A stretch of DNA of 64,000 bases from Candidatus Peregrinibacteria bacterium (GTDB lineage: Bacteria; Patescibacteriota; Gracilibacteria; Peribacterales; Peribacteraceae): the NCBI GenBank assembly GCA_018648865.1, contig JABGQH010000009.1:12917-76916 (forward strand), given 5' to 3'. Positions 5,663-59,893 of this stretch are shown one piece after another (the first letter of the stretch is position 1; each line of letters begins with the position of its first letter). A program made the translations under genes and the position numbers. Below the pieces are notes generated by a model. That model did no database searches, was not told where the DNA came from, and worked only from the letters and a program-made list of their open reading frames with translations.

Positions 5663-5776
5663 CTACTTATTATAAAAGAAAAGTCGAATTTACTCAATCT
5701 AGGGGCATTGACTAATGCCTAATAATATTTTCTATTTGTTCTGCATCAAAGCTCTCTAAAGAGGTATACTTTTGGA

Positions 5777-6748
5777 GTGAGTGATCTAATAGTATTAATC
5801 GGTCCTAATAAATACGCTTTGCGTAAAGAAAAACAACGTTGGACCAATGGCTTTAAGAAACGCCAAGGTGAAGAGAATCTAGCTGAATACTTTGCCAAAA
5901 AGGTATCTTTCTTGAATCTACAAAACGAAGGACAAGTTGCACCATTTATAGCTGATAAAAGATTAATTGTTGTTTATGGCGTACCTAATGGAAAAAAAGA
6001 GGATATCCAAAAAATAATTGATGTAAAACATCCAGATACCATATTTCTATTTGTAATAGAAGAAGAGGCGGGAAAGAAGAGAAAGCTTACTATTCCTGGC
6101 AAAGAATTGGTTGCGAAGGGTCAGGTTCAGGAATTCCCAATGCTTAATACTAATCTAATCAAACAATGGATTATTGATGAGGCTAAAAATTCTGGTGCCC
6201 TAGGAATAGACCAAGATGCTATTAATTATTTGATTGATACCATTGGTGAAGATCAGAATATTTTAGAATCAGAAATATCAAAGATCGCTACATATGCATT
6301 TGGAAAAACAATTACAAAGGATGATGTTTCTTTGTTGGTTGCAAGTATTACAGAAAGGGATGTATGGAAGCTAATGGACTTTCTTGGATCTGAAGATGTT
6401 AATAGCGCACTTAACTATGTTCATGAATTACTGGATAGGGGATACAGCCCTCAAGCTCTGTGGAGCATGTATCTATGGATGATTTCCCTTATTCCTCAAA
6501 TAGTAGCTGTAATAGAGGAAGGAGAGAGCAATCCATGGAAGATAGCGGGGTCGGTACGGGCTAATCCATATAGCGTTAAGGCGATTCTTCCATTTGCTAA
6601 ATCTGTAAGCAGAGAGAAGCTTTCTCGCATTGTAAAAACGGCAATAGATTTTGATATTAAGATGAAAACAGGTGAATATAAATCGCCAACTAACGATCAA
6701 GAAGAGTTACTATCTTTAATAGATAGGTCTATTATGACTTTTTCATAA
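5777..6748 (+). CDS. holA: DNA polymerase III delta subunit
   Basis: APFIADKRLIVV, DAINYLIDTIGED...LESEISKI, DIKMKTG; 323 aa. Confidence 0.85.
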   Translation: MSDLIVLIGPNKYALRKEKQRWTNGFKKRQGEENLAEYFAKKVSFLNLQNEGQVAPFIADKRLIVVYGVPNGKKEDIQKIIDVKHPDTIFLFVIEEEAGKKRKLTIPGKELVAKGQVQEFPMLNTNLIKQWIIDEAKNSGALGIDQDAINYLIDTIGEDQNILESEISKIATYAFGKTITKDDVSLLVASITERDVWKLMDFLGSEDVNSALNYVHELLDRGYSPQALWSMYLWMISLIPQIVAVIEEGESNPWKIAGSVRANPYSVKAILPFAKSVSREKLSRIVKTAIDFDIKMKTGEYKSPTNDQEELLSLIDRSIMTFS

Positions 6749-43991: not shown

Positions 43992-44070
43992 AGGTTCAGT
44001 TTACATTATTTACATAAAGACTATATGTTTTATATGAAGATTGAAATATAGGTATGTATACTATTATTAA

Positions 44071-45750
44071 ATGAAAAAGATATGCACAAAGTGTTCGGCA
44101 GGATTTGAGATCACAGAAGAAGATATTGATATGCTGAGTGATTTAAGTCCTGTGATTGGAGGGAAGAAATACGAAATTCCACCACCAACGCTTTGTCCTA
44201 GGTGTAGATCCAAAAGAAGGCTATCTCATGTTAACCAATTAAATTTATATGAGAGGAAATGTAATCTAACTGGAGCAAGCATTATTTCAAATATTAGACC
44301 TGAGTTGCCTTATAAGGTATATCGCCAAGAAGATTGGTACAGCGATAAGTGGGATCCATTAGATTATGGAATGAATTTTGATTTTAATAGACCATTTTTT
44401 GAACAATGGAATGAGCTTGTATTAAATGTTCCACTCCCCAATCTATTTACAGGATATGAATTTGATGAAAATTGTGAATATACAAACCACGCAGGTAAAA
44501 ATCAGAATTGTTATTTGGTTTTTGATTCAGATGAAGACAGAGACTGCTATTACAGCTACAGCATAAATCAGTGTGTAAATTGTATGGACTGCTATCGAAC
44601 TAGGAAGTCTGAATTATGTTATGAGTGTGTTGATTGTGTTAAATGTTATGAGTCTTCATTCTTACAAGATTGTAATAATTGTAGCTCTAGCATGTTTTTA
44701 AAAAACTGTACTGGATGTAAAAACTGCTTGATGTGCTCTAACATGAACAATAAAGAATATTTTGTAGAAAATAAAAAAGTTTCAAAAGAAGAGTTTGAAA
44801 ACTTTAGATCATTATTGGGTTCATATGCTTCTTTAAAGAATGCAAAAGAAAGGTTTATGAAATTAAAATTAGAGTATCCACAAAAATATATACATGGGAT
44901 TCAAAACGAAGATGTAGTAGGGGATTACCTAGTTAATTGTAAAAATGCATATATGTGCTTCGATAGCGAGGACTTATGGGATTGCAGGTATGTTTGCCAA
45001 GGTTTTATGCCTCTAAAAAATTGTATGGATATAGATGAATGTGGAGAGGCAGAAAAGTTGTATGAGTGCACGGTTTGTGGTTACCAAATTAATTCCTGTT
45101 GCTTCTGTGACCATACATTAGGAATGATGACTGACCTTTTATATTGTTCCCATTGCCCACATACTACAGATTCATTTGGTTGCAGAGGTGTTCAAAGAAA
45201 GGAGTACTGCATTCTAAATAAGCAATATACAAAAGAAGAATATGAAGAATTGGTACCTAGGATTATTAATCACATGATTGAAACAGGTGAATGGGGCGAG
45301 AACTTTCCATCCACAACATCTAAATACGCATATAACGAGACGATGGCTCAAGATCATTATCCACTAAATAAAGAGCAGGCAGTTAAAGAAGGTTTAAATT
45401 GGCTAGATGATGAAAAGAAGATTGATCAATACATGGGTCCAGTAAATGTATTACCAGATAATGTGAAAGATGCCCCCGATGATGTTTGTAAAAAAATCTA
45501 CATTTGTGAGGAATCAGGTGAGCCATATAAAATTATTCCTCAGGAACTTTCGTTTTATAAAGAATTAAATTTACCATTACCTAGAAAAGGTTTCTTTAAA
45601 CGTAATAAGGATAGAATGAAGTTAAGAAGCCCAAGAAAATTATATGGCAGGAAATGCGAAGAGTGCGGAATTGAATTCATGACTTCTTATGCATTAGATA
45701 GAGAGGAAAAAATCTTTTGCGAATCCTGTTACCAGAAAGCTCTAATATGA
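44071..45750 (+). CDS. Cys-rich zinc-ribbon/repeat protein, array copy 1
   Basis: CxxC...PTLCPxCR...WYSDKWDP...DFNRPFF, Cys repeats, GEWGE.FP, C-terminal FCESCY. Confidence 0.9.
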   Translation: MKKICTKCSAGFEITEEDIDMLSDLSPVIGGKKYEIPPPTLCPRCRSKRRLSHVNQLNLYERKCNLTGASIISNIRPELPYKVYRQEDWYSDKWDPLDYGMNFDFNRPFFEQWNELVLNVPLPNLFTGYEFDENCEYTNHAGKNQNCYLVFDSDEDRDCYYSYSINQCVNCMDCYRTRKSELCYECVDCVKCYESSFLQDCNNCSSSMFLKNCTGCKNCLMCSNMNNKEYFVENKKVSKEEFENFRSLLGSYASLKNAKERFMKLKLEYPQKYIHGIQNEDVVGDYLVNCKNAYMCFDSEDLWDCRYVCQGFMPLKNCMDIDECGEAEKLYECTVCGYQINSCCFCDHTLGMMTDLLYCSHCPHTTDSFGCRGVQRKEYCILNKQYTKEEYEELVPRIINHMIETGEWGENFPSTTSKYAYNETMAQDHYPLNKEQAVKEGLNWLDDEKKIDQYMGPVNVLPDNVKDAPDDVCKKIYICEESGEPYKIIPQELSFYKELNLPLPRKGFFKRNKDRMKLRSPRKLYGRKCEECGIEFMTSYALDREEKIFCESCYQKALI

Positions 45751-47399
45751 AAAACTCTTGCAGCGAATGCTCGGCAAAATTTGAAGTAACAGATAGTGAT
45801 TTAGAATTCTTTGGTAAATTTAAATACCCCATATCTACACCTACTCTGTGTCCGGCCTGTCGAGTACAAAGGAGGATGTCTTGGAGGAACGATAGAACTT
45901 TCTACCATCGAAAATCCTCCTTATCAAAAAAACAGATGGTATCTATTTATCCAGAAAATACCCCTTGGCCTGTATATCTACAGAGTGAGTGGTATAGCGA
46001 TAAATGGAATCCTTTGGATTATGGAATTGAATTTGATTTTAGCGTTCCATTCTTTACTCAGTTTAAAGAGCTAATGATGACAGTACCTAGACTGGGTATG
46101 GATTTAATTAATTGTGAGAACAGCGAATATTGTAATTACTGTGGTGATGATAAAAACTGTTATTTAGATATTGCAGGTGAGGCCAATGAAGATTGTTACT
46201 TCTGTTTATTTACTAAATATTCAAAAAATTGCTTAGACTGCACATTCGCTTATCATTCAACTCTGTGTCATGAATGCATACAGGTTTACAACTCATATGC
46301 ATGTAGGAATTCTATGTACTTAGATAACTGCAGTGATTGCGCATTTAGTTTCGATCTAAAAGGATGCAAGAACTGCCTACTTTCTATTAACCTTCGTAAT
46401 AAAGAATATTATATTTTGAACGAACCTCATACAAAGGAGGAATATGAAAAGAAACTTTTAGAATTAAATTTGAGTTCTAATGAAGCACTAAAAAGTGTTC
46501 ATGATATTTGGAAAAAAATGAGAATTGAAAATGGAATCTATAGAGACATGTACACCTTGAATTGTGAAGACTGCACAGGAAATAACGTTAAGACATCAAA
46601 AAATTGTCATGGATGTTACAACACAACAGACTCAGAAGATTGTAAATATTTATATGATGTCCTAGATGCAAAGGACTGTCAGGATTTAAATTACTCACTT
46701 TATAAACCAGAGGTAGCATATGAACTCTGTTCAACGTTAAATATGACTTATAGCGCCTTCTGCTACGCTTCTCATTACAGTAATAATTGTTTCTATTGTG
46801 ATAAGACAAATCATAGTAGCAACTGTTTTGGTTGTATTGGATTAGACCATATGGAGTATTGCATTCTGAACAAGCAATATACAAAGGAAGAATACGAAGA
46901 ATTGCTGCCAAGAATTATCGCATACATGGAAAAAACTAAAGAATGGGGACAGTTCTTTCCAGTTACACTTTCACCATATGGATATAACGAAACTGTTGCC
47001 CATGAATACATGCCACTAACTCAGAAAGAGGTAGAGAAGAATGGTTGGGTTTGGACGTTGCAAGAAGAAAAGGAAAGTTACATGGGTCCAGAAGTACAAA
47101 TACCAGATACAATTTCGGATGTAAGCGATGATATTTGTAATGAGCTTATAACCTGCGATAAAAGTGGTAAGCCTTTTAAGATAATTCCACAAGAGCTTAA
47201 ATTTTATCGCGAGCAGGGGATTCCAATACCTAGGAGGTCCCCAATGCAAAGGCATACAGATAGAAATGACCTAAGAAATCCACGCAAGCTCTGGGACAGA
47301 AAATGTGATAAGTGCTCAAATGATATTCAAACAAGTTACAGTCCAGATAGGCCAGAGAAGGTTTTTTGTGAGGAATGTTATCTAAAAGAGGTATACTAG
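45747..47399 (+). CDS. Cys-rich protein, array copy 2 (start ATG 45747, ATGA overlap with copy 1 stop)
   Basis: Paralogue; MKNSCSEC aligns with the other N-termini; ends CEECYLKEVY. Confidence 0.9.
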   Translation: MKNSCSECSAKFEVTDSDLEFFGKFKYPISTPTLCPACRVQRRMSWRNDRTFYHRKSSLSKKQMVSIYPENTPWPVYLQSEWYSDKWNPLDYGIEFDFSVPFFTQFKELMMTVPRLGMDLINCENSEYCNYCGDDKNCYLDIAGEANEDCYFCLFTKYSKNCLDCTFAYHSTLCHECIQVYNSYACRNSMYLDNCSDCAFSFDLKGCKNCLLSINLRNKEYYILNEPHTKEEYEKKLLELNLSSNEALKSVHDIWKKMRIENGIYRDMYTLNCEDCTGNNVKTSKNCHGCYNTTDSEDCKYLYDVLDAKDCQDLNYSLYKPEVAYELCSTLNMTYSAFCYASHYSNNCFYCDKTNHSSNCFGCIGLDHMEYCILNKQYTKEEYEELLPRIIAYMEKTKEWGQFFPVTLSPYGYNETVAHEYMPLTQKEVEKNGWVWTLQEEKESYMGPEVQIPDTISDVSDDICNELITCDKSGKPFKIIPQELKFYREQGIPIPRRSPMQRHTDRNDLRNPRKLWDRKCDKCSNDIQTSYSPDRPEKVFCEECYLKEVY

Positions 47400-47419
47400 G
47401 CACCAATGCAGAAAAAATG
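47361..47419 (+). repeat. 59-bp junction repeat, exact copy at 49050-49108; variants at junctions near 50750-50800, 52435-52485 and 54125-54176
   Basis: GTTTTTTGTGAGGAATGTTATCTAAAAGAGGTATACTAGGCACCAATGCAGAAAAAATG occurs twice. Confidence 0.92.
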
Positions 47420-49088
47420 CTGTAAATGTCCGGGATCGTTTGAAATAACTGACGAGGATTTAGTATTTTACGACAAAGTTTCACCAATAATTAATAAAAA
47501 GAAACACAGAATACCAACTCCTACTCTATGCACACCCTGTAGAGAGCAGAGGCGTTTAGCAATCCCGAATGTTAGAAACTTCTATTCTAGAGAATGTAAT
47601 CTTTGTCAGAAGATGATGGTATCAGCATATGCATCCGATCAACTATTTACAGTCTATTGCCAAGAATGTTGGTGGGGTGATAAGTGGGATGAATTAACTT
47701 ACGGTGTTGATGTTGATTTCTCACGTCCATTTATCGAGCAGATGCAAGAATTACAACTAAAAGTGCCACGGCTTACCTTGATGAATAAGGCTGCAGAGAA
47801 CAGTGAGTTCTGTAACTACGCAGGATTCAACAAGAATTGTTATCTAGCAATTGCTGGTTCGTGGTACAACGAAGATTGTTTATATGGAACGTGTTTCGAT
47901 CACTCAAAAAACTCTGTGGATTGCTCATTTCTTTCTTACGGAGAATTGTGTTACGAATGCATCTATGGCACTAAATTATACAATTGTGTTTACTGTGTTG
48001 ATTCCTCTGATTCCTCAGATTGTCTATTTTCATTCAATTTAAGAGGTTGTAGAAATTGCATTCTAAGCAGTAATATACGTAACAAACAGTATTACATACG
48101 TAATAAGCAATGCACTAAGCAAGAATTTGATGAAATCAGGAGTATGATTTCTAGGTACGAAATCTTCCAGAAATATCTAACAGAGTTTCACAAGTGGAGA
48201 AAAACACTCTTGCGTCCAGCTAACTACAATATTAACTGTGAAGATTGTATCGGCGACTATCTGCGGAATTGCAAAAATGTAGTAAACGGCTTTATTGGAA
48301 ATGGGGTAGAGGATGCAAAAAATGTTTTCATGGTTGAGTATTCAAAGGATTTTATGGACTGTTGTTTTGCAGGTTACGATAATGCTCAACTTTTCTATGA
48401 ATGCATAGCCGCTGGTATAGGAGGGCAGCGTAATCAATTCTGTTTTCAGAATTGGTCATGCAATGACATACTTTATTGCGATACACCACAGTCATCATCA
48501 GACTGTTTCGGTTGCATTTGTATTCGCAATAAACAATTTTGTATTCTAAATAAGCAATATTCAAAGAACGAATACCAAGAGTTAGTACCAAGAATCATAG
48601 ATCTTATGAAAAAACATGGAGAGTGGGGAGAGTTCTTTCCATCTAGCTATAGTCCATTCGCTTATAACGAGACATTTGCTCAAGACTACTATCCTCTAGC
48701 CAAAAAAGAAGCACTAATGAATAATCTAAAATGGAGAGAGGACACTAATGAAATATTAAAAGTAGATCGAACTATACCTTCTAGTAATCTACCTGATTCT
48801 ATCCATGACATTCCAGATGATATTCTTAATTGGGCTGTAATATGTGCAGAAACTGGTAAGCCGTACCGTATTGTAAAACAAGAACTTTACTATTATCGTT
48901 CACAGAACCTACCAGTTCCTCGATTACACTACGATGCTCGCAATAAGCATCGCATCCAATTACACAATTTGAATAAGATACACAAAAAGCAATGCGACAA
49001 GTGCAACAAAGAAATGCATACAGTTTATTCAACTGATTGTTCTGAAACAGTTTTTTGTGAGGAATGTTATCTAAAAGAGGTATACTAG
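47406..49088 (+). CDS. Cys-rich protein, array copy 3
   Basis: Paralogue, 560 aa, ends CEECYLKEVY. Confidence 0.9.
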   Translation: MQKKCCKCPGSFEITDEDLVFYDKVSPIINKKKHRIPTPTLCTPCREQRRLAIPNVRNFYSRECNLCQKMMVSAYASDQLFTVYCQECWWGDKWDELTYGVDVDFSRPFIEQMQELQLKVPRLTLMNKAAENSEFCNYAGFNKNCYLAIAGSWYNEDCLYGTCFDHSKNSVDCSFLSYGELCYECIYGTKLYNCVYCVDSSDSSDCLFSFNLRGCRNCILSSNIRNKQYYIRNKQCTKQEFDEIRSMISRYEIFQKYLTEFHKWRKTLLRPANYNINCEDCIGDYLRNCKNVVNGFIGNGVEDAKNVFMVEYSKDFMDCCFAGYDNAQLFYECIAAGIGGQRNQFCFQNWSCNDILYCDTPQSSSDCFGCICIRNKQFCILNKQYSKNEYQELVPRIIDLMKKHGEWGEFFPSSYSPFAYNETFAQDYYPLAKKEALMNNLKWREDTNEILKVDRTIPSSNLPDSIHDIPDDILNWAVICAETGKPYRIVKQELYYYRSQNLPVPRLHYDARNKHRIQLHNLNKIHKKQCDKCNKEMHTVYSTDCSETVFCEECYLKEVY

Positions 49089-49094
49089 GCACCA

Positions 49095-50786
49095 ATGCAG
49101 AAAAAATGTCCTAAGTGCTCGGCGTCATTTAATGTAACTGACGAGGATATTTTGCTTTTAGATAAATTATCACCAGTGATTAATTCCAAAAAGCATAGTC
49201 TGCCAGCTCCTACATTATGTTTTAGCTGCAGATTACAAAGGAGGCTAGCGTTCTATAATTCTAGATCGATTTATCCTAGGAAATGCGATCTAACAGGAAA
49301 AAACATTGTATCTATTTATTCACCGGATAAGCCATACAAAGTTTACGAGAGAAGAGAATGGTATGGGGATAACTGGGATCCATTTGAATATGGCAGAGAT
49401 TTTGATTTTAATAGACCTTTCTTTGATCAATTCAAAGAATTACTAGATTCGGTTCCACATCTTTCTTTAACAGTACTAGGAGAGACTGTTAATAGTGAAT
49501 TCACTAATGACAATTTGATAGTAAAAAATTGTTATCTAATATTCGACGGAGAGAGAGCAGAGGATTGTATGTATGGTCATACATTTGTTGGTATCACTTC
49601 ATGTTTAGATTTTGCAGCAGCGGTAGATTGTGAACTCTGCTATGAAACGATCCATTGCAATAATTGTTATAACTGCAAATACAGTAGATATTCTACAAAT
49701 TGTAGTGATAGTTGGTTTATTAGGGACTGCATAGGATGTAAGAACTGTTTTGGATGTGCTAATTTGAGGCAAAAACAATATTGCATATTTAATGAACAAA
49801 AAACAAAAGAGGAATACGAGAAATACTTAGAACAATTCGATTCAACCTCGTATAAAACTGTTCAGGATATGATTAATAAAACAAATGAGTTCTTTCTGAA
49901 ATATCCTGTAAAAGAATGTAGAGGAGAACAGAATGTTGATGTCACAGGGAATAATCTAAATCAATCAAAGGATTCAAAAGACTGCTTTGACTGCAACAAA
50001 GTACAGGACTGCCATTACTGCACAAATTGCTTGGTAGGAGCAAAGGACTGCAGTGATATACATATATGGGGAGACAGCATGGAGCTCTGTTATGAAAGCT
50101 GCGTAATTGGTGTAAAGACTCAAAACTTATTGGGCTGTTATTATGTGTCACAAGGTGCAGACAACATACTCTATTCTATGTATTGCAGCAGAAGTGTAAA
50201 AAACCTATTTGGTTGCATAGGGTTACGGCATAAGAGCAATTGTATTTTCAACAAACAATATTCAGCAGAAGAGTATGAAGATCTAGCTGAAAGAATCGTT
50301 GAGCATATGAAGAAGACTGGAGAATGGGGGGAGTTCTTTCCATCTTCTATATCTGGCTTTGGTTATAACGAAACAATGGCTCAGACATTCTTTCCCTTAG
50401 AAAAAGACGATGCAAAGAAGCTTGGCTATTCATGGAGTGAATACCAATCTCCTGTAGAGGCAGATCGTACGATTGATGCTTCAAAGTTGCCAGATAGTAC
50501 AAATGACATCCCAGACGATGTTTTGAACTGGGCCATCGTATGCACAGATACAGGAAAGCCTTTTAAAATAATTAGGAAGGAACTTGAGTTTTATAGAGAT
50601 CATAAATTGCCGATTCCTCGTAAGCACCCAGACCAAAGGCATTACGATAGATTTGCTATTAAAAATCCATATCACCTTTGGGATAGATCATGCGATAAAT
50701 GTTCTAAAGAAATTAAAACAACATACGCACCAGAAAGGCCAGAAACAATTTTCTGTGAAGAATGCTATCTAAAAGAGGTATACTAA
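49095..50786 (+). CDS. Cys-rich protein, array copy 4
   Basis: Paralogue, 563 aa. Confidence 0.9.
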   Translation: MQKKCPKCSASFNVTDEDILLLDKLSPVINSKKHSLPAPTLCFSCRLQRRLAFYNSRSIYPRKCDLTGKNIVSIYSPDKPYKVYERREWYGDNWDPFEYGRDFDFNRPFFDQFKELLDSVPHLSLTVLGETVNSEFTNDNLIVKNCYLIFDGERAEDCMYGHTFVGITSCLDFAAAVDCELCYETIHCNNCYNCKYSRYSTNCSDSWFIRDCIGCKNCFGCANLRQKQYCIFNEQKTKEEYEKYLEQFDSTSYKTVQDMINKTNEFFLKYPVKECRGEQNVDVTGNNLNQSKDSKDCFDCNKVQDCHYCTNCLVGAKDCSDIHIWGDSMELCYESCVIGVKTQNLLGCYYVSQGADNILYSMYCSRSVKNLFGCIGLRHKSNCIFNKQYSAEEYEDLAERIVEHMKKTGEWGEFFPSSISGFGYNETMAQTFFPLEKDDAKKLGYSWSEYQSPVEADRTIDASKLPDSTNDIPDDVLNWAIVCTDTGKPFKIIRKELEFYRDHKLPIPRKHPDQRHYDRFAIKNPYHLWDRSCDKCSKEIKTTYAPERPETIFCEECYLKEVY

Positions 50787-50792
50787 CTGCCA

Positions 50793-52472
50793 ATGCAGCA
50801 AACCTGCGAAAAGTGTTCGGCAATGTTTGAAGTCACAGAAGGGGATTTAGAGTATTACGATGAAATATCGCCTATATTTAACGGAAAGAAATACTTAATA
50901 CCTCCTCCTGTTCAGTGCCCTGAATGTCGCTTTCAGAGGAGGTTAATATTTAGAAATGAAAGAAAATTATATAAAAGAAAATCAGATGTTTCAGGAAAAC
51001 AAATAGTAAGTATGTTTGCTCCAGATAATCCACATAAAACATGTACACAGGACGAGTGGCTTAGTAATGATTTTGACGCAATGCAGTTTAGTAGAGATTT
51101 TGATTTTGATAGTCCATTTTTCGATCAGCTAAAGGAGTTGAATATTGATGTACCGCATCCTGGTTTAAATAATACAAATGTAGAAAATAGCGAATTCACA
51201 AACTTTGCACTAAATCAGAAAAATTGTTATCTGATATTTGGAGCAGGGGATAATGAGGATTGTATATATGGAAAGTTCATTGTCTCTTCTAACAATGTTG
51301 TAGACAATTTGTCGTTATACTCCTGCGAATTTTGTTACGAAGGAGTGTCGTCTCAAAATTGTTATGAATGTACATATTTCAAAAATTGTCATAATTGTGC
51401 AAATTGCATGATGGTAGAAGACTGCAGTTCATGCAAAAACTGTTTAATGTGCTTTGGGTTAAGGAACAAGGAATATTGCATATTGAATGAGCAATTATCT
51501 AAAGAAGAATATGAAAACAGGAGAAGCAAGATTGATCCTTTAACTAATAAGAAGATTTTGGAGATGCAATTTGAATTAGATAAGTTAAAAGAAAACATTC
51601 CTCATATTGATTCTCATATATACGCGAGTGAAGATTGCACTGGTGAAACTATTTATAACAGTAAGGGGTGTCATAATTGCTTTGATATTAAGAATTGTGA
51701 GGATTGTAAATATACATCTTATACTCCGAATGGCGTTGCCTCTTACGACTCCACATTTACTGCTCCGGATGGTGTTAGGTGGTGCAATAATGTTATTTCT
51801 GCAATTGGACACAGGTGCATGGGTACTTTCTTATGTTGGTATACAAACGATGTTTATTACTCAATTAATTGCAGGAATTGTGACTTCTGTTTTGGATGTG
51901 TTGGATTACAGAATCAAAAATATTGTATTTTCAACAAGCAATACTCAAGAGATGAGTATGAAGTCATTGTTCCTAAGATAATCAAAAAAATGGAATCTGC
52001 AGGAGAATGGGGGCATTTCTTGCCTCCAGAACTTTCACATTTTGCATATAACGAGACAATTGCTAACGAATATTTTCCTCTTCTAAAAAAAGAAGTTGAA
52101 AAGAGGGGATTTAGGTGGAGAGAAGAAGATGAAGTTATTCCAGATGTAGAAAAGATAATTCCTGCTAGTCAGCTTCCACCATCAATATCAGATATTCCGG
52201 ACGATATATTAAATTGGGCTGTTAAATGTGAAATAACAGGAAGACCATTTAGAATTATAAAACCAGAATTGAATTACTACAGAAAAATGGGTCTTCCAAT
52301 TCCTCATGTTCATCCAGATGAAAGGCATAATATAAGACTTAGGAAAAAGAATCCTTACAAGCTATGGCAATGTAAGTGTGCAAACTGCTCCAAGGAAATT
52401 AAAACAACCTACGCACCAGAAAGGCCTGAAACAGTTTTTTGTGAAGATTGCTATCTAAAAGAGGTATACTAA
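50793..52472 (+). CDS. Cys-rich protein, array copy 5
   Basis: Paralogue, 559 aa. Confidence 0.9.
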   Translation: MQQTCEKCSAMFEVTEGDLEYYDEISPIFNGKKYLIPPPVQCPECRFQRRLIFRNERKLYKRKSDVSGKQIVSMFAPDNPHKTCTQDEWLSNDFDAMQFSRDFDFDSPFFDQLKELNIDVPHPGLNNTNVENSEFTNFALNQKNCYLIFGAGDNEDCIYGKFIVSSNNVVDNLSLYSCEFCYEGVSSQNCYECTYFKNCHNCANCMMVEDCSSCKNCLMCFGLRNKEYCILNEQLSKEEYENRRSKIDPLTNKKILEMQFELDKLKENIPHIDSHIYASEDCTGETIYNSKGCHNCFDIKNCEDCKYTSYTPNGVASYDSTFTAPDGVRWCNNVISAIGHRCMGTFLCWYTNDVYYSINCRNCDFCFGCVGLQNQKYCIFNKQYSRDEYEVIVPKIIKKMESAGEWGHFLPPELSHFAYNETIANEYFPLLKKEVEKRGFRWREEDEVIPDVEKIIPASQLPPSISDIPDDILNWAVKCEITGRPFRIIKPELNYYRKMGLPIPHVHPDERHNIRLRKKNPYKLWQCKCANCSKEIKTTYAPERPETVFCEDCYLKEVY

Positions 52473-52478
52473 TCACCA

Positions 52479-54164
52479 ATGCAGAAAACTTGTACTAAAT
52501 GTTCGGCTCCGTTCGAGGTAACCGATGATGATATTAAATTTTACGAGAATGTTTCCCCTATTATAAAAGGAGAAAAGTATATTATTACTCCTCCTAAATA
52601 TTGCCCTGATTGCAGATTACAGAGGAAGGTTTGCTTTCGAAATGAACGCATGTTTTATAGTCGAAAAAGTGATTTAACAGGAGATATGATGGTTTCCATA
52701 TATGCTCCAGATATTCCATACAAGATATATGATCAAGAAGAATGGTGGAGCAAGAAGTGGGATGCCAGAGACTATGGACGTGAATTTGATTTTACAAGAC
52801 CATTTTTTGATCAAATGAATGACCTATGGAAGGAGGTTCCAATAGTTACATTATGGAATTCAAACTGCGAGAATGCCACATATAACAATAACTGCTTCCA
52901 TTTGAAGGATAGTTATATGAATTACAACAGTGACGAAGGAGAGAGAATTATGTATTCATATGGAACGGAATTCTGCACTGATTCTGCTGATTGTACATTC
53001 GTACAAAAATCTGAACTTTGTTATGAATGTACCGATTGTACGAGAGCATATACATGTATATTTTCTAGTCTTTTGGATAACTGCACAGACTGCTCATTCA
53101 GTTCAGACTTGATGGGATGTAAGAATTGTTTTGGCTGCCATGGACTTAGACAACAAAGTTATTGTTTCTTTAATGAACATCTCTCAAAAGATGAGTGGGA
53201 AGATCGTATGAAATCTATTAGTTATACACCACAAAATATAAGTAAATATAAAAAACAATCTGAAGAAGTGCGTATGAAGGTGCCACAAGTTGCTACAAAA
53301 ATGGTGCAGTGTTCGGACAGTACAGGAAACTTTTTATATAACTGTGCCAATTCTGAAAATTGTTTTGATATGCATAATTGCGAATTTGTTAAGAATGGAA
53401 TTTACGTTCCTTGGGACGTAAAACATGCGCAAGATGTATACGCACATGCTGGAGCAGAATGGAGTTACGAAGTAATTGCAGGGGGAATAGGAATTTCACA
53501 TGTTGCATTTATAAATGGTTTAGTTAGTGGCCTAAGTGATAGTTACTATTCAGTCCAATGCGGATACGGATCTAATAATCTATTTGGATGTGTAAGTATG
53601 ATGAAATATAAATATTGCATTTTAAATAAGCAGTACACAAAAGAAGAATACGAAGAGCTTGTGCCTCGTGTCATAGAACACATGAAAAAGAATGGAGAAT
53701 GGGGAGAATTCTTTCCCCCTAGTATTAGTCCATTTGCGTATAACGAAACAATGGCACAGGAATTCTTCCCTCTAACAAAAGAAGAAGCTCTTAATCAAGG
53801 ATATAAATGGAGAGATATACAAGATGAACTGCCAAAATCTGACAGAGTGATTTCTTCAGATAAGTTGCCACCATCAATCGAAGATATTCCTGACGACATC
53901 CTAAATTGGGCAATTAAATGTGAAGTTAGTGGGAGACTTTATAAAATTACATCTCAAGAATTGGATTTTTACCGTCGCATGAAATTACCGGTTCCGAGAT
54001 TGCATTACGAGAAGCGCTATCAAAACAGGGCAAAAAGTCGACCTCCACGCAAGCTTTGGAATCGCAAATGTAACAAGTGTGATATTGATATACAGACAGT
54101 CTATTCACCTGATAGGCCAGAGAAAGTTTTTTGTGAAGATTGCTATTTAAAAGAGGTATACTAA
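52479..54164 (+). CDS. Cys-rich protein, array copy 6
   Basis: Paralogue, 561 aa. Confidence 0.9.
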   Translation: MQKTCTKCSAPFEVTDDDIKFYENVSPIIKGEKYIITPPKYCPDCRLQRKVCFRNERMFYSRKSDLTGDMMVSIYAPDIPYKIYDQEEWWSKKWDARDYGREFDFTRPFFDQMNDLWKEVPIVTLWNSNCENATYNNNCFHLKDSYMNYNSDEGERIMYSYGTEFCTDSADCTFVQKSELCYECTDCTRAYTCIFSSLLDNCTDCSFSSDLMGCKNCFGCHGLRQQSYCFFNEHLSKDEWEDRMKSISYTPQNISKYKKQSEEVRMKVPQVATKMVQCSDSTGNFLYNCANSENCFDMHNCEFVKNGIYVPWDVKHAQDVYAHAGAEWSYEVIAGGIGISHVAFINGLVSGLSDSYYSVQCGYGSNNLFGCVSMMKYKYCILNKQYTKEEYEELVPRVIEHMKKNGEWGEFFPPSISPFAYNETMAQEFFPLTKEEALNQGYKWRDIQDELPKSDRVISSDKLPPSIEDIPDDILNWAIKCEVSGRLYKITSQELDFYRRMKLPVPRLHYEKRYQNRAKSRPPRKLWNRKCNKCDIDIQTVYSPDRPEKVFCEDCYLKEVY

Positions 54165-54170
54165 ATACCA

Positions 54171-55835
54171 ATGCAGAATTGTATTTCATGTAACGTTTCA
54201 TTCGAAGATAGTCAGGCAGAGATATCTTTAAGAGCAAAGATTGGCGATGCTATACAAAAAGGTGATTTGCCAGAGCCAAAGCTATGTTGTGACTGCAGAT
54301 TAATTCAACTAATGAGTTGGAGGAATGAACGCATTCTATATACGAGAATGTGTGATAAGAGTGGCAAAAAGATAATCTCTGTTTATCCGCAAAATGTAGC
54401 TTTCCCTGTTTATGAAAAATCTATTTGGTGGGGAGACAGTTGGAACGCCACAAACTATGGCCAGGATTATGATTTTAATAGACCATTCTTTGAGCAGTTT
54501 GCAGAATTACAAAGAAATACTCCTCGTGCGTCATTAAATACAAAGAATGTTGAGAATTGCGATTATTGTAATTTTACGTTTGATTCAAAAGATAGTTACT
54601 TAACAACGTGTTGTTATTACTCAGAATCAATTCTATACAGTTTTTGGATGCTTGAGTGCAAAGATTGTACTGAATGTAGTTATTGTTTTCAGTGTCAGAA
54701 CTGTTTGCAGTGCACTGACTGCAATAAATCATATGGTTGCTATGAGTGTGTGCAATGCAATGTTTGCACTGATAGTTCGTACTTATTTGATTGTCGTGGT
54801 TGTACAGACTGTTTTTGTAGTGTCGGATTAAGAAATGCTAAATATCACATGTTTAATGAGAAATTATCTAAAGAAGAATTTGAAAATAGAATGAAAGAAT
54901 TTGATTTGCAAAATCCAGTACATGTAGAAAAGGTAAAAGAACGATTAGATGCTTTAAAATTAAAACACCCACACAAATATTCTGTGCAGGAAAAGTGTGA
55001 AGACTCAACGGGGGACCATATAGTAGAATTAAAAGACTGCAAAAATTGCTATCAGACATTTAGATCCAGAGATTGTATAAATGTAACAGACGCGGACGGA
55101 AACAATGATTTGCTTGATTGCTATCATACTGGTTGGTCAGAAATGATATATGAAGGATATTCACCAGTTAGACTTAGGAACTCTGCATTTGAGGTACAAT
55201 GCTGGGATGGCAATGACATCTTCTATTCAGATACATGCCAGAATTGCTCATATTGCTTTGGGTGTATTAGCTTGCGACAAAATAAATATTGCATATTGAA
55301 TAAACAATATTCAAAAGAAGAATATGAAGTAATGCTCTATAAAATAATTAATCATATGAAATCTACAGGTGAGTGGGGGAAATTCTTTCCAAATGAAATT
55401 TGTATATTTTCTTATAACGATTCTGTGGCTCAGGATGTATATCCTCTAGAAAAAGAGGAAGCAATTAAACGAGGATGGAAATGGCAAGATAATCTCCCAT
55501 TTACTATGGGAAAGGAAACTACAACTTGGAATAGCTATGAAATGAAGATTGAAAAGGTGCAAGAAGATATATTAAATGAGATATTTGCCTGTGAATGTTG
55601 TAAAAAGAATTATCGTATAATTAGATCTGAACTCAAGTTTTATAAACAAATGAAGTTACCATTATCTAGGCTTTGTTCAGGATGTAGACACTTAGAAAGG
55701 ATCAAGACCAGAAATCCAAGAAATTTACATAACAGAACATGTAATAAATGTAATAAGGAAATTCAAACCACTTTTGCACCAGAAAGACCAGAAAAGGTTT
55801 ACTGCGAGGAATGTTATTTGAAAGAGGTTTATTGA
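54171..55835 (+). CDS. Cys-rich protein, array copy 7
   Basis: Paralogue, 554 aa. Confidence 0.9.
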   Translation: MQNCISCNVSFEDSQAEISLRAKIGDAIQKGDLPEPKLCCDCRLIQLMSWRNERILYTRMCDKSGKKIISVYPQNVAFPVYEKSIWWGDSWNATNYGQDYDFNRPFFEQFAELQRNTPRASLNTKNVENCDYCNFTFDSKDSYLTTCCYYSESILYSFWMLECKDCTECSYCFQCQNCLQCTDCNKSYGCYECVQCNVCTDSSYLFDCRGCTDCFCSVGLRNAKYHMFNEKLSKEEFENRMKEFDLQNPVHVEKVKERLDALKLKHPHKYSVQEKCEDSTGDHIVELKDCKNCYQTFRSRDCINVTDADGNNDLLDCYHTGWSEMIYEGYSPVRLRNSAFEVQCWDGNDIFYSDTCQNCSYCFGCISLRQNKYCILNKQYSKEEYEVMLYKIINHMKSTGEWGKFFPNEICIFSYNDSVAQDVYPLEKEEAIKRGWKWQDNLPFTMGKETTTWNSYEMKIEKVQEDILNEIFACECCKKNYRIIRSELKFYKQMKLPLSRLCSGCRHLERIKTRNPRNLHNRTCNKCNKEIQTTFAPERPEKVYCEECYLKEVY

Positions 55836-55877
55836 TTCTTATACGTAATATCAATTTGCTGTTATTATATTTAAGTA

Positions 55878-57545
55878 ATGCAAAAAACATGTAACCAGTG
55901 TTCAACTTCATATGAAATATATGATGATGACAAAGCGCTTCTACATAAAATTTCGCCTACAATTGGTGGTAGAAAATTTGAAATACCAGTATCGGATATT
56001 TGCCCAGAATGTAGGCAGCAACGTAGAATGTCCTTTAGAAACGAAAGGAAGCTGTATCGCAGGAAATGTGATGTTACAGGCAAGGATATCATTTCTATAT
56101 TCTCTTCGGACTCTCTTTTTAAGGTATGTGATAAGGATTACTGGTATAGCGATAAATTTGATCCCTTGGAATATGGCAGAGACTATGATTTTAATAGGCC
56201 ATTCTTTGAGCAATTCAAGGATTTGTCATTAACAATCCCTATGCCATCTATGCGCGTGGAAAGGTCAGAGAATTGTGATTTTAACAATGACATGGGGGAT
56301 TGTAAGAACTGTTACTTGTGTGCACGAACACATCAGTCACAGGATCTTATATACACATACAGAGGCAACAGATCATCTAGTTCAATAGATTGCACTCAGA
56401 TAACCAGATCAGAGATTCTTTATGAATGTGTTGATTGTGTTAAGTGCTACAACTGTAAATATTCATTCTTTTGTAGTGAATGTACAGATTGTTCTTTTCT
56501 ACTTGATTGTAGGAGTTGCATGTCCTGCTTTATGTGTACAAATCTTAGGAGTAAACAGTATTGTTTCTTAAATGAGCAACTAACCAAAGAAGAGTACGAG
56601 AAAAGACTTTCAGAATTTAATTTTGGTTCTTATGACCATGTTCAAAGAGCTTACAAAATGTACGCAGATATAAAAAAGAAAGCCATCCGTAGGAATCTTA
56701 TAAAAGTAAATGCAAACAACTCAACAGGCGACAATTTAATAGACTGTAATAATTGCCATATGTGCTTTAGCACTCAGTTTACAGAGGACGGTAGGTATCT
56801 GTGGGATGTTAAGGATTACAAGGATTCAATGGATGCATATAGCGGAGGAAGAAATAGTGAGCTTATGTACTACACAACTGCAGGGGCTGCTTCGTATAGT
56901 GTTCAGTTTTGCTTTAGGACATCTGGATGTAATGATGTTTTGTATTCGTTCTATATTAATACATCTAAAAACATATTTGGATCTATCGGTTTAAAAAGGG
57001 GAAACTTTTGCATTCTAAACAAGGAATATACAGAAGATGAATATAACGATCTGATGCCAAAGATTATTGATCATATGATCAGCACTGGTGAGTGGGGCAA
57101 GTTCTTTCCGTCTTCCCTTTGTCCATTTGCTTATAATGAAACTGTTGCTGACGAATTCTTTCCCCTAGATAAGGGAAGAGCTAACGATTTAGGATATAGG
57201 TGGAAAGAAGATGATCCAAAGGATTTTATGCCTCAAACATATAACATTCCAAATAACATTTCTGATGTTAAGGATGATATTTTAAATGAGGTTTTGGCAT
57301 GTGATACATGTAATAAGAATTACAAGATAGTTCCTGCTGAACTTAAGTTTTATAGAAATCATAATCTAGCTATTCCTAGGTACTGCATCGATTGCAGACA
57401 TATGAGGAGAAATAAAACAAAGAACCCAATGAGAATTAGAAAAGACATTTGCAAGAAATGTAATTCAGAAATGGATACTACATATCCAGAAGGAACAGAT
57501 ATGCAGATAATTTGTGATGATTGCTATCTAAAAGAGGTTTATTAA
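55878..57545 (+). CDS. Cys-rich protein, array copy 8
   Basis: Paralogue, 555 aa, ends CDDCYLKEVY. Confidence 0.9.
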   Translation: MQKTCNQCSTSYEIYDDDKALLHKISPTIGGRKFEIPVSDICPECRQQRRMSFRNERKLYRRKCDVTGKDIISIFSSDSLFKVCDKDYWYSDKFDPLEYGRDYDFNRPFFEQFKDLSLTIPMPSMRVERSENCDFNNDMGDCKNCYLCARTHQSQDLIYTYRGNRSSSSIDCTQITRSEILYECVDCVKCYNCKYSFFCSECTDCSFLLDCRSCMSCFMCTNLRSKQYCFLNEQLTKEEYEKRLSEFNFGSYDHVQRAYKMYADIKKKAIRRNLIKVNANNSTGDNLIDCNNCHMCFSTQFTEDGRYLWDVKDYKDSMDAYSGGRNSELMYYTTAGAASYSVQFCFRTSGCNDVLYSFYINTSKNIFGSIGLKRGNFCILNKEYTEDEYNDLMPKIIDHMISTGEWGKFFPSSLCPFAYNETVADEFFPLDKGRANDLGYRWKEDDPKDFMPQTYNIPNNISDVKDDILNEVLACDTCNKNYKIVPAELKFYRNHNLAIPRYCIDCRHMRRNKTKNPMRIRKDICKKCNSEMDTTYPEGTDMQIICDDCYLKEVY

Positions 57546-57652
57546 TAAAATATAGGGGTGGGGGTATATATATGCATTCAAAAGTGGCTATTTATCGCTA
57601 ATATATGCAGAGAAAGCTTCACATTTAGTAAATTTTAAAGTAAAATTCATGA

Positions 57653-59893
57653 TTGATGGCGCTTTCTTATTTGCATATCGTTATTCCACAGGGAAACCCA
57701 AATTCTCCTAAGTTAGAATCAAAATGGCAGGAGTTGTTAATTGCTCTAAGAAATACGATTACAGGTGAAAGGTTTTCATTTGAGTATTTTGGAAACGAAC
57801 AATATACATATTTTTATGTAGTTTCTAAAAAGAAGTACCAAGGAACCATAGAGGGTCGAATATACTCTTCGTTCCCAGATGCAGAAATATATGAAGTAAG
57901 TGATTACACTAGCAAGTTTAATCCAGAAAAAAGTGGATTTGCTGGGACACAGGTATCTCTATCAGAAAAAGATGTTTATCCAACTAGAACATACGAACAA
58001 TTTGAGGAAGACAGCATGGCACCATTCTTTTCAGTGGTTTCTAAGATAGAAAGTGGTGAGCAAGTTTGGACTCAAATAATTGTAGAGCCGCATGACGATA
58101 CAGGTAGATATCATTTAAGAAGGAATTTTAGGTATTGGCTGGTTAGAATGAAAAAGTTCTTTTCTGTGCGGGATAGATTAAGGAAGGAAGGATTGAAGGG
58201 AATAAATGCAGTAAGATTTGATATGGCAAAAGATAAAGAAAAAACAAAACCATTCAAGGTAAGTATCAGATGTTGCTACATTGCGAAAGATTCAGAAATA
58301 GCAAAAAGAAAGCTCCGCTCTGTAGTTAATAGCTTTTATCAATTCAATGATTCAGATATTAATTCATTTGAATCTTCTAGGTACTCAACTTCCGATAAAT
58401 TCATTGATAATTACAAAAACAGAAAGCACGCAAAGACATTCATATTAAGTGCTAAGGAATGTGCAACCATATATCACTTACCAAATGCGGACTTTACTCC
58501 ACATATAGTTCATGTACTTGCTCGCAAATCAGATCCTCCTAGAGATCTACCAAGAAAAGGAGAGAAAGAAGTAAGTGCTTTTGGTGTTACCAATTACCAT
58601 AACAACTTTGTTCCATTTGGTATAAAGAGAGAGGACAGAAGGAGACATTTGTATTGTGTAGGTAAGTCTGGATCTGGAAAAAGTAAATTATTGGAACTAT
58701 TGATTAATACAGACATAAAAGATGGTCACGGTGTTGCTGTCTTGGATCCTCATGGTGATTTAGTAGATGCAATACTTAAGCTAATCCCAGAGGAAAGGAA
58801 AGATGATGTAGTTTTGTTAGATCCAGGTGATATAGATTTTCCAATTGCGTTTAACCCACTTCAACAAGTTGATGAGGCATACAAAATGCAATTAACAATT
58901 GGATTCTTAGATATTTTCAAGAAGCTATTTGGAGATAACTGGACATATAGATTGGAGCACGTGCTTAGATATACAACTCTAGCTTTGTTAGACAGCCCTA
59001 ATACTACAGTCTTAAGCATACTTAAGATGCTTACAGACAAGAACTACAGACAAAAGATTGTTTCTAGGATCAACGATAATGTTGTTAAGAGTTTCTGGGT
59101 TAGCGAGTTTGCTGCATGGAGTGAAAAGTACGATGCTGAAGCAATTACACCACTGCTAAATAAAGTTGGGCAATTAGTAGCAACAAACATGGTTAGGAAC
59201 GTAATTGGTCAGCCAGAAACAAAGTTTGATATCAGAGAGATAATGGACAACAAGAAAATACTTCTTATGAAAGTATCCAAGGGACTACTCGGAGAAGAAA
59301 ACTCAGCTCTAGTAGGATCAATGATTATCACAAAGATGTATCAGGCTGCAATGAGTAGGGCAGATACTGCAGAGGCAGATAGACCTGATTTCTACTTTTA
59401 TGTAGATGAGTTCCAGAACTTTGCCACAGACACATTTTATGAAATCTTATCTGAAGCTAGAAAGTATCATCTTAATTTAACAATCGCTCATCAATATATG
59501 GGACAGTTGAGTGATAAGATTAGGCAAACAGTATTCGGTAATGTTGGTTCTATGATTAGCTTCCGTGTTGGAGCAGAGGATGCAAAGATTCTATCAGAGG
59601 AGTACAGTCCTATCTTTAACGAGCGCGATATTATTAATCTTGGTGTACGTGAGTTCTACACAAAGATGTCCATAGATGGAGAAATTAGAGAAGCTTTCTC
59701 TGGCAGAACCATGGATGCTCCAGTTCCTACAAATGATATATCTAAAGAAATAAGAGAATTATCTCGAAAGAAATATTGTGAACCAAAAGCAAATGTAGAA
59801 GTAATGTTAAAGAAATGGGATGAAGCAGCTTCTGCAGAAGCAACAGAAGAAGAAATGGCAGTAGAAGAAAAGTTTGAGGAGCCAATATTGTAA
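57653..59893 (+). CDS. VirD4/TraD/TrwB-like (HerA-FtsK superfamily) ATPase
   Basis: HLYCVGKSGSGKS, LDPHGDL, FYVDEFQNF, LSEARKY, AHQY, FRVG.EDA. Confidence 0.9.
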   Translation: MMALSYLHIVIPQGNPNSPKLESKWQELLIALRNTITGERFSFEYFGNEQYTYFYVVSKKKYQGTIEGRIYSSFPDAEIYEVSDYTSKFNPEKSGFAGTQVSLSEKDVYPTRTYEQFEEDSMAPFFSVVSKIESGEQVWTQIIVEPHDDTGRYHLRRNFRYWLVRMKKFFSVRDRLRKEGLKGINAVRFDMAKDKEKTKPFKVSIRCCYIAKDSEIAKRKLRSVVNSFYQFNDSDINSFESSRYSTSDKFIDNYKNRKHAKTFILSAKECATIYHLPNADFTPHIVHVLARKSDPPRDLPRKGEKEVSAFGVTNYHNNFVPFGIKREDRRRHLYCVGKSGSGKSKLLELLINTDIKDGHGVAVLDPHGDLVDAILKLIPEERKDDVVLLDPGDIDFPIAFNPLQQVDEAYKMQLTIGFLDIFKKLFGDNWTYRLEHVLRYTTLALLDSPNTTVLSILKMLTDKNYRQKIVSRINDNVVKSFWVSEFAAWSEKYDAEAITPLLNKVGQLVATNMVRNVIGQPETKFDIREIMDNKKILLMKVSKGLLGEENSALVGSMIITKMYQAAMSRADTAEADRPDFYFYVDEFQNFATDTFYEILSEARKYHLNLTIAHQYMGQLSDKIRQTVFGNVGSMISFRVGAEDAKILSEEYSPIFNERDIINLGVREFYTKMSIDGEIREAFSGRTMDAPVPTNDISKEIRELSRKKYCEPKANVEVMLKKWDEAASAEATEEEMAVEEKFEEPIL

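Follow-up and report, generated by a model that had tools for sequence, protein, structure and literature searches.

A candidate -10 promoter element in the last codons of tandem paralogues of a Peregrinibacteria genome

This analysis concerns an array of eight tandem paralogues on the + strand of a 64,000-nucleotide (nt) stretch of a Candidatus Peregrinibacteria genome (GenBank assembly GCA_018648865.1, contig JABGQH010000009.1; C15:12917-76916 in our contig labels), hereafter the window, and the hexamer TATACT with which five of these genes end. At each of the five junctions the hexamer is read across the valine codon GTA, the tyrosine codon TAC and the T of the stop codon TAA or TAG, and is followed by 8 nt and then by the ATG of the next paralogue. 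The embedded hexamers probably act as -10 boxes that drive near-leaderless transcripts of each downstream paralogue, a reading drawn from sequence comparison. The evidence that carries it comes from related loci of other species, in which the choice of synonymous codons at the two positions changes with the distance to the next gene. The pattern indicates synonymous selection on two sites, dependent on junction spacing across species.

The array spans window positions 44071-57545 and encodes proteins of 550-563 amino acids (aa), with the coordinates of the individual copies and boxes collected in Table 1. The string GAGGTATACTA occurs five times in the window, against 0.02 occurrences expected from 100 shuffles, and each occurrence is the Glu-Val-Tyr-stop end of one of paralogues 2-6. 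The original prediction, made from the letters of the window alone, had placed TATACT 8 nt before the next ATG at these five sites, and all of its coordinates are correct; the same geometry ahead of copy 1, in non-coding DNA, is confirmed as well. A gap of 6 nt follows each of copies 2-6, and the next start reads ccaATG at all five boxed junctions. The gap after copy 7 is 42 nt and copy 8 is the last of the array; both end in GAG GTT TAT and lose the box, as had been claimed, and copy 8 is preceded by TGTTATTAT. As a rule for the whole array the claim holds from junction 2/3 to junction 6/7 and fails at junction 1/2, where copy 1 ends in KALI, its stop codon and the start codon of copy 2 overlapping as ATGA (copy 2 begins at 45747), with no box upstream of copy 2. 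Copy 2 is probably co-transcribed and coupled with copy 1. Coupling by stop-start overlap (ATGA or TAATG) is ruled out at junctions 2/3 to 6/7 by the 6-nt gap, only junction 1/2 being of the overlapping kind.

Neither codon is rare in this genome, where GTA accounts for 41.5% of valine and TAC for 32% of tyrosine codons. By simple arithmetic, five GTA-TAC pairs in five junctions would arise by chance with a probability of about 4e-5, a figure that is valid only if the copies are independent. Junctions 2/3 and 3/4 have in common an exact tract of 59 nt (window 47361-47419 and 49050-49108), which extends from 39 nt before to 20 nt after the stop end and is flanked by sequence that is 63-67% identical; a short event of gene conversion or unequal crossover, centred on the junction, is suggested. 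Because of this common tract, the five junctions amount to about four independent sequences. Elsewhere in the paralogues synonymous sites are saturated, codon identity at identical residues being 0.50 overall, with a rise to 0.66 over the last 11 columns, and the codons just upstream of Val-Tyr (GAG/GAA, GAA/GAT, TGT/TGC) differ between copies. The codon test across species is stronger evidence than the five of five in the window.

Codon choice and junction spacing across related loci

The sample for the codon test comprises 70 related loci and the window, with 80 of the 763 confirmed stretches of the family taken. A hidden Markov model (HMM) built from the eight copies retrieved 274 family open reading frames (ORFs), 228 of them with a complete C-terminus. 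Val-Tyr-stop forms the end of 134 of these 228; the other 94 lie outside the codon test and are kept in the box counts. Junctions of 4-7 nt after the stop constitute a class of their own, this being the only distance at which a box whose final base is the stop T can serve the next start (spacer of 6-9 nt). The original prediction had proposed that GTA-TAC choice be compared with the presence of a downstream paralogue in homologous arrays, and the comparison is positive at 4-7 nt. GTA encodes the valine at 14/17 such junctions and in 16/117 other contexts (Fisher p=1.9e-8), and the difference persists when the window is excluded (9/12 vs 16/115, p=1.7e-5). The other contexts consist of junctions of <=3 nt (GTA in 3/29), junctions of 8-60 nt (3/24) and copies whose next gene is far or missing, that is, terminal and solitary copies (10/64). 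Tyrosine is encoded by TAC at 15/17 junctions of 4-7 nt and in 47/117 other contexts (p=2e-4), a bias that agrees with the promoter set described below, in which C exceeds T at hexamer position 5.

All junctions of 4-7 nt use GTA in seven of eight assemblies, with five junctions in the window, two each in loci L009, L010 and L060, and one each in L005, L035 and L069. These assemblies span 35-56% GC, and among the non-junction copies of the seven positive loci GTA is found in none of ten. In L009, L010 and L060, at 53-56% GC, GTA makes up 5-8% of the valine codons of family genes, yet all six junctions carry it. The codon usage of each locus predicts 3.8 GTA codons over the 17 junctions, against the 14 observed, and the joint probability with one junction per locus is 1.1e-6. 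GTT, which is equally AT-rich and the commonest valine codon elsewhere (50/117), occurs at 0/14 junctions of the seven positive loci. The spacer between box and ATG is 8 nt in the window and 6 nt in L009, L010, L035 and L060, where the box starts at -12. Two further junctions of 4-7 nt do not end in Val-Tyr: the one in L064 (...Leu-Asn-stop) spells TAAATT at -14, and the one in L023 has no box.

Counted over 219 family starts, a box at -15..-12 is likewise concentrated at the same spacing. It is present at 15/18 starts with the upstream stop 4-7 nt away, 5/38 with the stop at <=3 nt, 3/10 at 8-19 nt, 8/49 at 20-200 nt and 23/45 at >200 nt, and at 19/59 starts with no paralogue upstream. The long junctions of relatives that contain repeats or hairpins (38-150 nt) are seldom boxed (8/49). 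In L061 and L064 (for example L061 1182, 2902 and 4622) and in L037 (13412 and 15088), the spacer of such junctions opens directly after the family stop codon with repeated units, GCCTGTAGG.TTGTAGG.ATGTAGG, or with a GC-rich hairpin, GCCCCCTAACCCCCTGAAGGGGG.

The recurrence of GTA-TAC might have no function and go back to shared ancestry, to conversion over short tracts between junctions, or to favoured codon pairs next to stops. The exact 59-nt tract, the abundance of GTA in this genome and the moderate rise of codon identity over the last 11 columns are in keeping with such an origin; the same choice in seven assemblies of widely differing GC, in three of which GTA is a rare codon, and its low frequency in terminal and solitary copies are not. 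Descent was followed in a FastTree tree of 198 copies, from which 30 of the 228 had been dropped because their HMM match does not start in the first 40 positions (L060_16007 among them). Copies of the window are scattered in the tree among those of other species, which argues that the paralogues are old. For 13 leaves labelled with the state '4-7 nt junction with GTA-TAY' the tree requires 13 changes, no fewer than shuffled labels do (12.7 on average, with a minimum of 10). Nearest relatives with different spacing also use different codons, as in L009_11674, with a 4-nt junction and GTA TAC, and L010_11674, with a 636-nt gap and GTC TAT. Codon state tracks junction spacing and not descent, as functional constraint predicts and simple inheritance does not. 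An origin without function is regarded as quite improbable.

Start-proximal boxes and the proposed transcripts

The source genome (1.13 Mb in 23 contigs, 37% GC, completeness rating 99.97%) is that of a Peribacteria-like bacterium belonging to the Candidate Phyla Radiation (CPR). Its gene set was produced with our own simple ORF caller, which yielded 1019 ORFs of >=120 aa; greedy removal of overlaps left 881, which cover 85% of the genome, and the first ATG was taken as the start. In 873 upstream regions the hexamer TAYAMT begins at -12, -13, -14 and -15 in 52, 25, 25 and 20 cases, over a background of about 2-7 per position, and -10 boxes stand 6-9 nt before roughly a third of the starts. The junction boxes, which begin at -14, fall inside this range, the genome-wide peak being at -12. 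Alignment of 240 intergenic boxes on the hexamer (spacers >=40 nt) reveals T, T and G at 57, 50 and 31% at 23-21 nt upstream, equivalent to a 17-nt spacer, and T at 49% and G at 39% at the extended -10 position. Because the -35 TTG and the extended -10 TG lie at canonical spacing, these intergenic boxes are judged to be real sigma-70-type promoters. Their commonest hexamers are TACACT, TATAAT, TACAAT and TATACT, the last ranking fourth with 14 cases, and at position 5 C (35%) prevails over T (10%). Judged from these positions, the promoter layout of the genome is leaderless, with transcription beginning at or next to the start codon.

The junction string is also present where no upstream coding sequence is involved. 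The sequence CTAAAGAGGTATACT (5756-5770), followed by 6 nt, lies in true intergenic DNA between divergent genes ahead of holA and contains the same AAAGAGGTATACT string as the junctions. The gene, ORF 5777-6748, has both DNA polymerase III delta domains in Pfam. The near-identical string and the identity of the gene had both been recognised in the original prediction, and the start proves to be GTG, not ATG.

Signals for ribosome binding of the Shine-Dalgarno (SD) type are depleted before the starts. G falls to 8-13% at -13..-1, and SD-like words (GGAG, GAGG, AGGA, GAAG and GGAA) are rarer before starts than further upstream. The mean duplex energy with the 16S tail over 853-873 starts is -0.63 kcal/mol at -20..-4 vs -1.64 at the control positions -60..-44, and 4.5% of starts pair with the tail at -5 kcal/mol or stronger. 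The tail itself reads ...CACTTCCTTA, not CCTCC; as the 16S 3' end ...GGATGGAACACTTCCTTACC (L001, G000:C9:174015-175488) it has the anti-SD core CUUCC instead of CCUCC. The altered core fits the absence of SD signals before genes. The ribosomal protein bS21 is described as frequently absent in Peregrinibacteria by Tsurumaki et al. 2022 (PMC9297842).

These observations bear on the alternative offered with the original prediction, in which GAGGT in the Glu-Val codons is the SD site of the next gene. Between GAGGU and ACUUC of the 16S tail five pairs can form, one of them G-U, at -4.5 kcal/mol, and few starts pair more strongly. The distance from GAGGT to the ATG is however 13 nt (11 nt in 4-nt junctions), compared with a usual spacing of about 5-10 nt, and the depletion of SD words and pairing throughout the genome, together with the altered anti-SD, speaks against such a site. 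Copies 7 and 8 keep GAG GT with no close downstream gene, relatives with the same type of junction read GCG GTA or GAA GTA, and the selected position, the A of GTA, lies outside the pairing. The SD alternative is judged very unlikely.

Box-like hexamers are depleted inside genes. TAYAMT occurs 1015 times within genes vs 1494 +/- 30 in 20 synonymous shuffles, and TANNNT 15155 vs 18155 +/- 99. The depletion relative to shuffles may in part be general avoidance of TpA at codon borders; the Markov expectation controls for TpA, and TATACT in coding DNA reaches 0.63 of it on both strands. A second start-proximal motif, the C-rich TTTCCC/TTCCCC, is found about 9-17 nt before the ATG of 99/853 ORF starts. 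YCCC peaks at -14/-13 (22 and 26 vs 1-4 elsewhere), and the motif is not complementary to the 16S tail; examples on the contig of the window lie at C15 37965(-), 40199(+) and 73301(-) in contig coordinates. A second sigma factor might use this motif as its -10-like element, or ribosomes might recognise it as a non-SD signal.

In the proposed mechanism, the last two sense codons (GTA and TAC) and the first base of the stop of paralogues 2-6 would double as a sigma-70-type -10 element, TATACT, at which the housekeeping RNA polymerase holoenzyme would open the DNA and start 7-9 nt downstream. For a box at -14..-9 such a start would fall either on the CA immediately ahead of the ATG or on its first base, and for relatives with 4-nt junctions that first base, A, is the canonical seventh position. 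Copies 3-7 would each be expressed from their own leaderless or near-leaderless mRNA, besides any read-through transcript. Copy 1 would be served by the intergenic box, copy 2 by its ATGA coupling to copy 1, and TGtTATTAT in the intergenic DNA would serve copy 8. Whether TAnnnT exists is decided by a single free base, the third of the valine codon, and only A is accepted there. We take this A to correspond to the -11 adenine of the promoter, which sigma reportedly flips out during promoter opening. Leaderless transcripts suit an organism that makes no use of SD pairing and in which about one start in three has a -10 box at 6-9 nt.

A different role for the same bases would be at the level of translation, with GTATAC-stop serving as a non-SD signal on a polycistronic mRNA that helps terminating ribosomes to re-initiate at the ATG 4-6 nt on. 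Genes lie 4-6 nt apart with no terminator between them, the terminator scan having found none at any array junction, and read-through is expected; most tight junctions in the genome are unboxed and must nevertheless be translated, and the ATGA overlap of copies 1 and 2 is a classical layout for coupling. Re-initiation would however be most expected at junctions of <=3 nt, where neither a preference for GTA nor a box is found (3/29 and 5/38, as above). The selected bases exactly complete TAnnnT and favour TATACT over TATATT, as promoter frequencies do, and GUAUAC has no complement in the 16S tail. No re-initiation signal of this kind is known to us, although no search aimed at one was made, and this role is considered unlikely.

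Several observations weigh against promoter boxes at the junctions. Promoter action and transcription starts there are inferred, not observed, and three metatranscriptome runs of the same study contain next to none of the words of the stretch and have no bearing on expression. No match to a -35 element is found 16-18 nt from the junction boxes, TGAGGA standing at the 17-nt spacing, and the bases before the box are AGG, so that only the G of the TG extension is present. The junction boxes are not flagged by an E. coli-type bipartite promoter scan, which reports 49 promoter-like sites in all vs 70 +/- 8.5 in shuffles. The bare hexamer is common in AT-rich DNA: TATACT is found seven times on the + strand of the array, five times at junctions and twice inside copy 5 (51316 and 51720), and about two are predicted for 13.5 kb from the coding background of 135 per 900 kb. 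Part of the identity among junctions within the window is due to conversion at junctions 2/3 and 3/4, and all gene starts come from a simple ORF caller or HMM alignment, not from curated annotation. In one related locus, L043 (Candidatus Abawacabacteria), three 5-nt junctions all use GTT. A box precedes 0/17 ORFs of that locus, a small sample; the per-locus test of leaderless layout is noisy in relatives, with short loci and unfiltered GC-rich ORFs, and only this count was used, as a hint.

The reach of the signal beyond the family also limits the reading. Tight junctions of the genome (-8..12 nt, array excluded) are mostly unboxed (86/111), and internal genes are evidently expressible without a box; at -15..-12, a box is present at 25/111 vs 12.3 expected from genes with no close neighbour (p=4e-4). 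A box whose last T belongs to the stop codon is found at 4/22 junctions of 4-7 nt vs 64/850 of the remaining genes of this genome (p=0.085) and at 3/17 vs 32/528 for non-family genes of the related loci (p=0.089); the pooled excess is modest (7/39 vs 96/1378, p=0.019). The strong box signal is a property of the arrays of this family and not a genome-wide rule. A related arrangement at 10-nt junctions rests on few numbers: in 4/5 cases a TAnnnT box takes its leading TA from the stop itself (TAA or TAG) and lies 7 nt ahead of the next ATG (starts at C20 98873, C21 51111, C9 27828 and C9 190743, contig coordinates).

The original suggestion that each gene carries the near-leaderless promoter of its neighbour thus gains partial support from the codon test, from the geometry followed over phylogeny and from the leaderless layout of the genome, and falls short in the -35 element and the full TG. 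Its extension, by which a cassette inserted anywhere in the array could be expressed independently, is a conjecture. According to PMC10653884, promoters with only a -10 element are documented in mycobacteria, and for this reason -35 and TG are treated as supporting and not obligatory.

Relation to known promoter arrangements

Three components of the arrangement are already known (PMC6028130, PMC10653884): promoters located within the 3' end of the gene upstream, leaderless genes, and TANNNT promoters that are gained or lost through synonymous change. What is notable here is a stop T fixed in a -10 hexamer, kept in at least seven assemblies of an uncultured lineage, with an on/off contrast that follows spacing. 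A broader proposal, for which the odds appear even, is that the stop-sharing promoter of these SD-less Peribacteria has been shaped by selection as a design: the stop codon would lend its T to the hexamer as the final base, recoding would give the penultimate codon a TA ending, and every gene of a tandem series spaced 4-7 nt apart would be transcribed into a leaderless mRNA of its own. The dual-coding -10 element would be maintained through synonymous selection across long evolutionary distances, and the ancient arrays in this family, which is specific to CPR, would consist of single-gene transcription units and not form operons.

The layout resembles that of the 'group C' bacteria (Actinobacteria and Deinococcus-Thermus), which the GeneMarkS-2 paper describes as having a Pribnow box 6-8 nt (about 10 nt) from the start and no ribosome-binding site (RBS) (Lomsadze et al. 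2018, PMC6028130). The same start-proximal -10 peak is found in this genome, likewise with no RBS. In contrast with group C, for which PMC6028130 assigns the box to the first genes of operons and an RBS to internal genes, the box lies here within the last codons of the preceding gene, at 6-nt tandem junctions and in a CPR lineage. In mycobacteria, as reported in PMC10653884, a bare TANNNT gives intragenic starts with no -35 element, synonymous recoding creates or removes it, TANNNT is depleted in coding DNA, and the resulting leaderless RNAs are translated. Depletion of TANNNT in coding DNA is common to the present genome, as is the role of synonymous choice in deciding whether a box exists. 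The intragenic promoters of mycobacteria are, according to the same source, accidental and selected against, whereas here the box is apparently selected for, in a fixed place and across species.

Two more familiar arrangements invite comparison. Coupling through ATGA or TAATG also expresses tightly packed tandem genes and is the arrangement of junction 1/2 and of many family junctions at <=3 nt. Junctions 2/3 to 6/7 differ in being 6 nt apart and boxed; the overlapping ones lack a box (5/38, as counted above). An SD site in the 3' end of an upstream gene is likewise a downstream signal written in upstream coding sequence, and GAGGT is SD-like, but the organism does not use SD pairing, its anti-SD is altered and the spacing is 13 nt. 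No paper on leaderless layout or codon-embedded boxes in CPR bacteria was found in a literature search of article texts; the articles retrieved mention leaderless genes in passing or in reference lists only.

Gene expression in CPR/Patescibacteria is a field with almost no experimental knowledge, and the present case makes specific predictions. Primary 5' ends are predicted at the ATGs of copies 3-7, each to be lost on one synonymous A-to-T change. The junctions offer a clean natural example of a synonymous site under the constraint of a transcription signal, toggled by gene spacing despite a strong GC-driven codon bias. For annotation, tight same-strand genes in such genomes are not automatically operons, and analyses of codon usage and dN/dS should expect non-neutral sites at gene ends.

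The paralogue family and its neighbourhood

The paralogues of the window are 36-44% identical to copy 3 and 35-42% identical to copy 1. The proteins are Cys-rich: a CxxC...CxxC unit lies in the N-terminal part, a treble-clef-like zinc finger in the C-terminal part, and the C-terminus reads ...FCEECYLKEVY in seven of eight copies, copy 1 ending instead in ...CYQKALI. This Cys-rich family of 550-563 aa is confined to Patescibacteria and usually occurs in arrays of up to 10 copies per 20-kb locus. It is spread over that group, with the 763 confirmed stretches and 5844 homologous proteins, every named one of which is labelled hypothetical. The best relatives, with identity up to 66%, are in metagenome-assembled genomes labelled Candidatus Peribacteria, Peribacteraceae or Peregrinibacteria.

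Table 1. Paralogues and promoter-like elements in the window (window coordinates).
Feature	Position	Strand	Remarks
Intergenic TATACT	5765..5770	+	6 nt before holA GTG start (5777); AAAGAGG string ahead, as at junctions
TATACT in non-coding DNA	44057..44062	+	8 nt before copy 1 ATG (44071)
TACTAT overlapping the 44057 TATACT	44059-44064	+	6 nt before copy 1 ATG
Paralogue 1, 559 aa	44071..45750	+	ends ...YQKALI; stop overlaps copy 2 start (ATGA)
Paralogue 2, 550 aa	45747..47399	+	ends GAG GTA TAC TAG
Embedded -10-like TATACT	47392..47397	+	8 nt before ATG 47406
Paralogue 3, 560 aa	47406..49088	+	
Embedded TATACT	49081..49086	+	8 nt before ATG 49095
Paralogue 4, 563 aa	49095..50786	+	
Embedded TATACT	50779..50784	+	8 nt before ATG 50793
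Paralogue 5, 559 aa	50793..52472	+	two internal TATACT
Embedded TATACT	52465..52470	+	8 nt before ATG 52479
Paralogue 6, 561 aa	52479..54164	+	
Embedded TATACT	54157..54162	+	8 nt before ATG 54171
Paralogue 7, 554 aa	54171..55835	+	ends GAG GTT TAT TGA, no box; next start 42 nt on
Intergenic extended -10 TGtTATTAT (TGTTATTAT)	55860..55868	+	9 nt before copy 8 ATG
Paralogue 8, 555 aa	55878..57545	+	ends GAG GTT TAT TAA; last copy
Full promoter-like site TTCACA-N17-TAAAAT	57618..57646	+	9 nt before ATG 57656 of VirD4/TraD-like ATPase gene

Domain searches add little to the description of the proteins. The sole Pfam match among the eight copies is a weak one to the treble-clef zinc finger PF23477 at the C-terminus (in 3/8 copies and above cut-off in one), and NCBIfam gives only a sub-threshold CxxC-x17-CxxC domain. 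The ESM Atlas returns unnamed CPR clusters and one automatic name, 'CaiB/BaiF', which was set aside as a name with no supporting Pfam match. An AlphaFold model of a paralogue reaches a predicted local distance difference test score (pLDDT) of 82 and a predicted template modelling score (pTM) of 0.84; Foldseek gave no match to it at E<=0.001, and VIA-align nothing above Z 3.4. Residues 127-270 of the model bear a weak predicted resemblance to beta-helix proteins.

In the window, an Rfam scan detects three tRNAs only and nothing at the junctions. A gene for a VirD4/TraD/HerA-like coupling ATPase follows directly after the array, at 57656-59893. Its ATG is preceded at 9 nt by the full promoter-like site of Table 1, so the TTG listed at 57653 is probably not the start of the ATPase gene.

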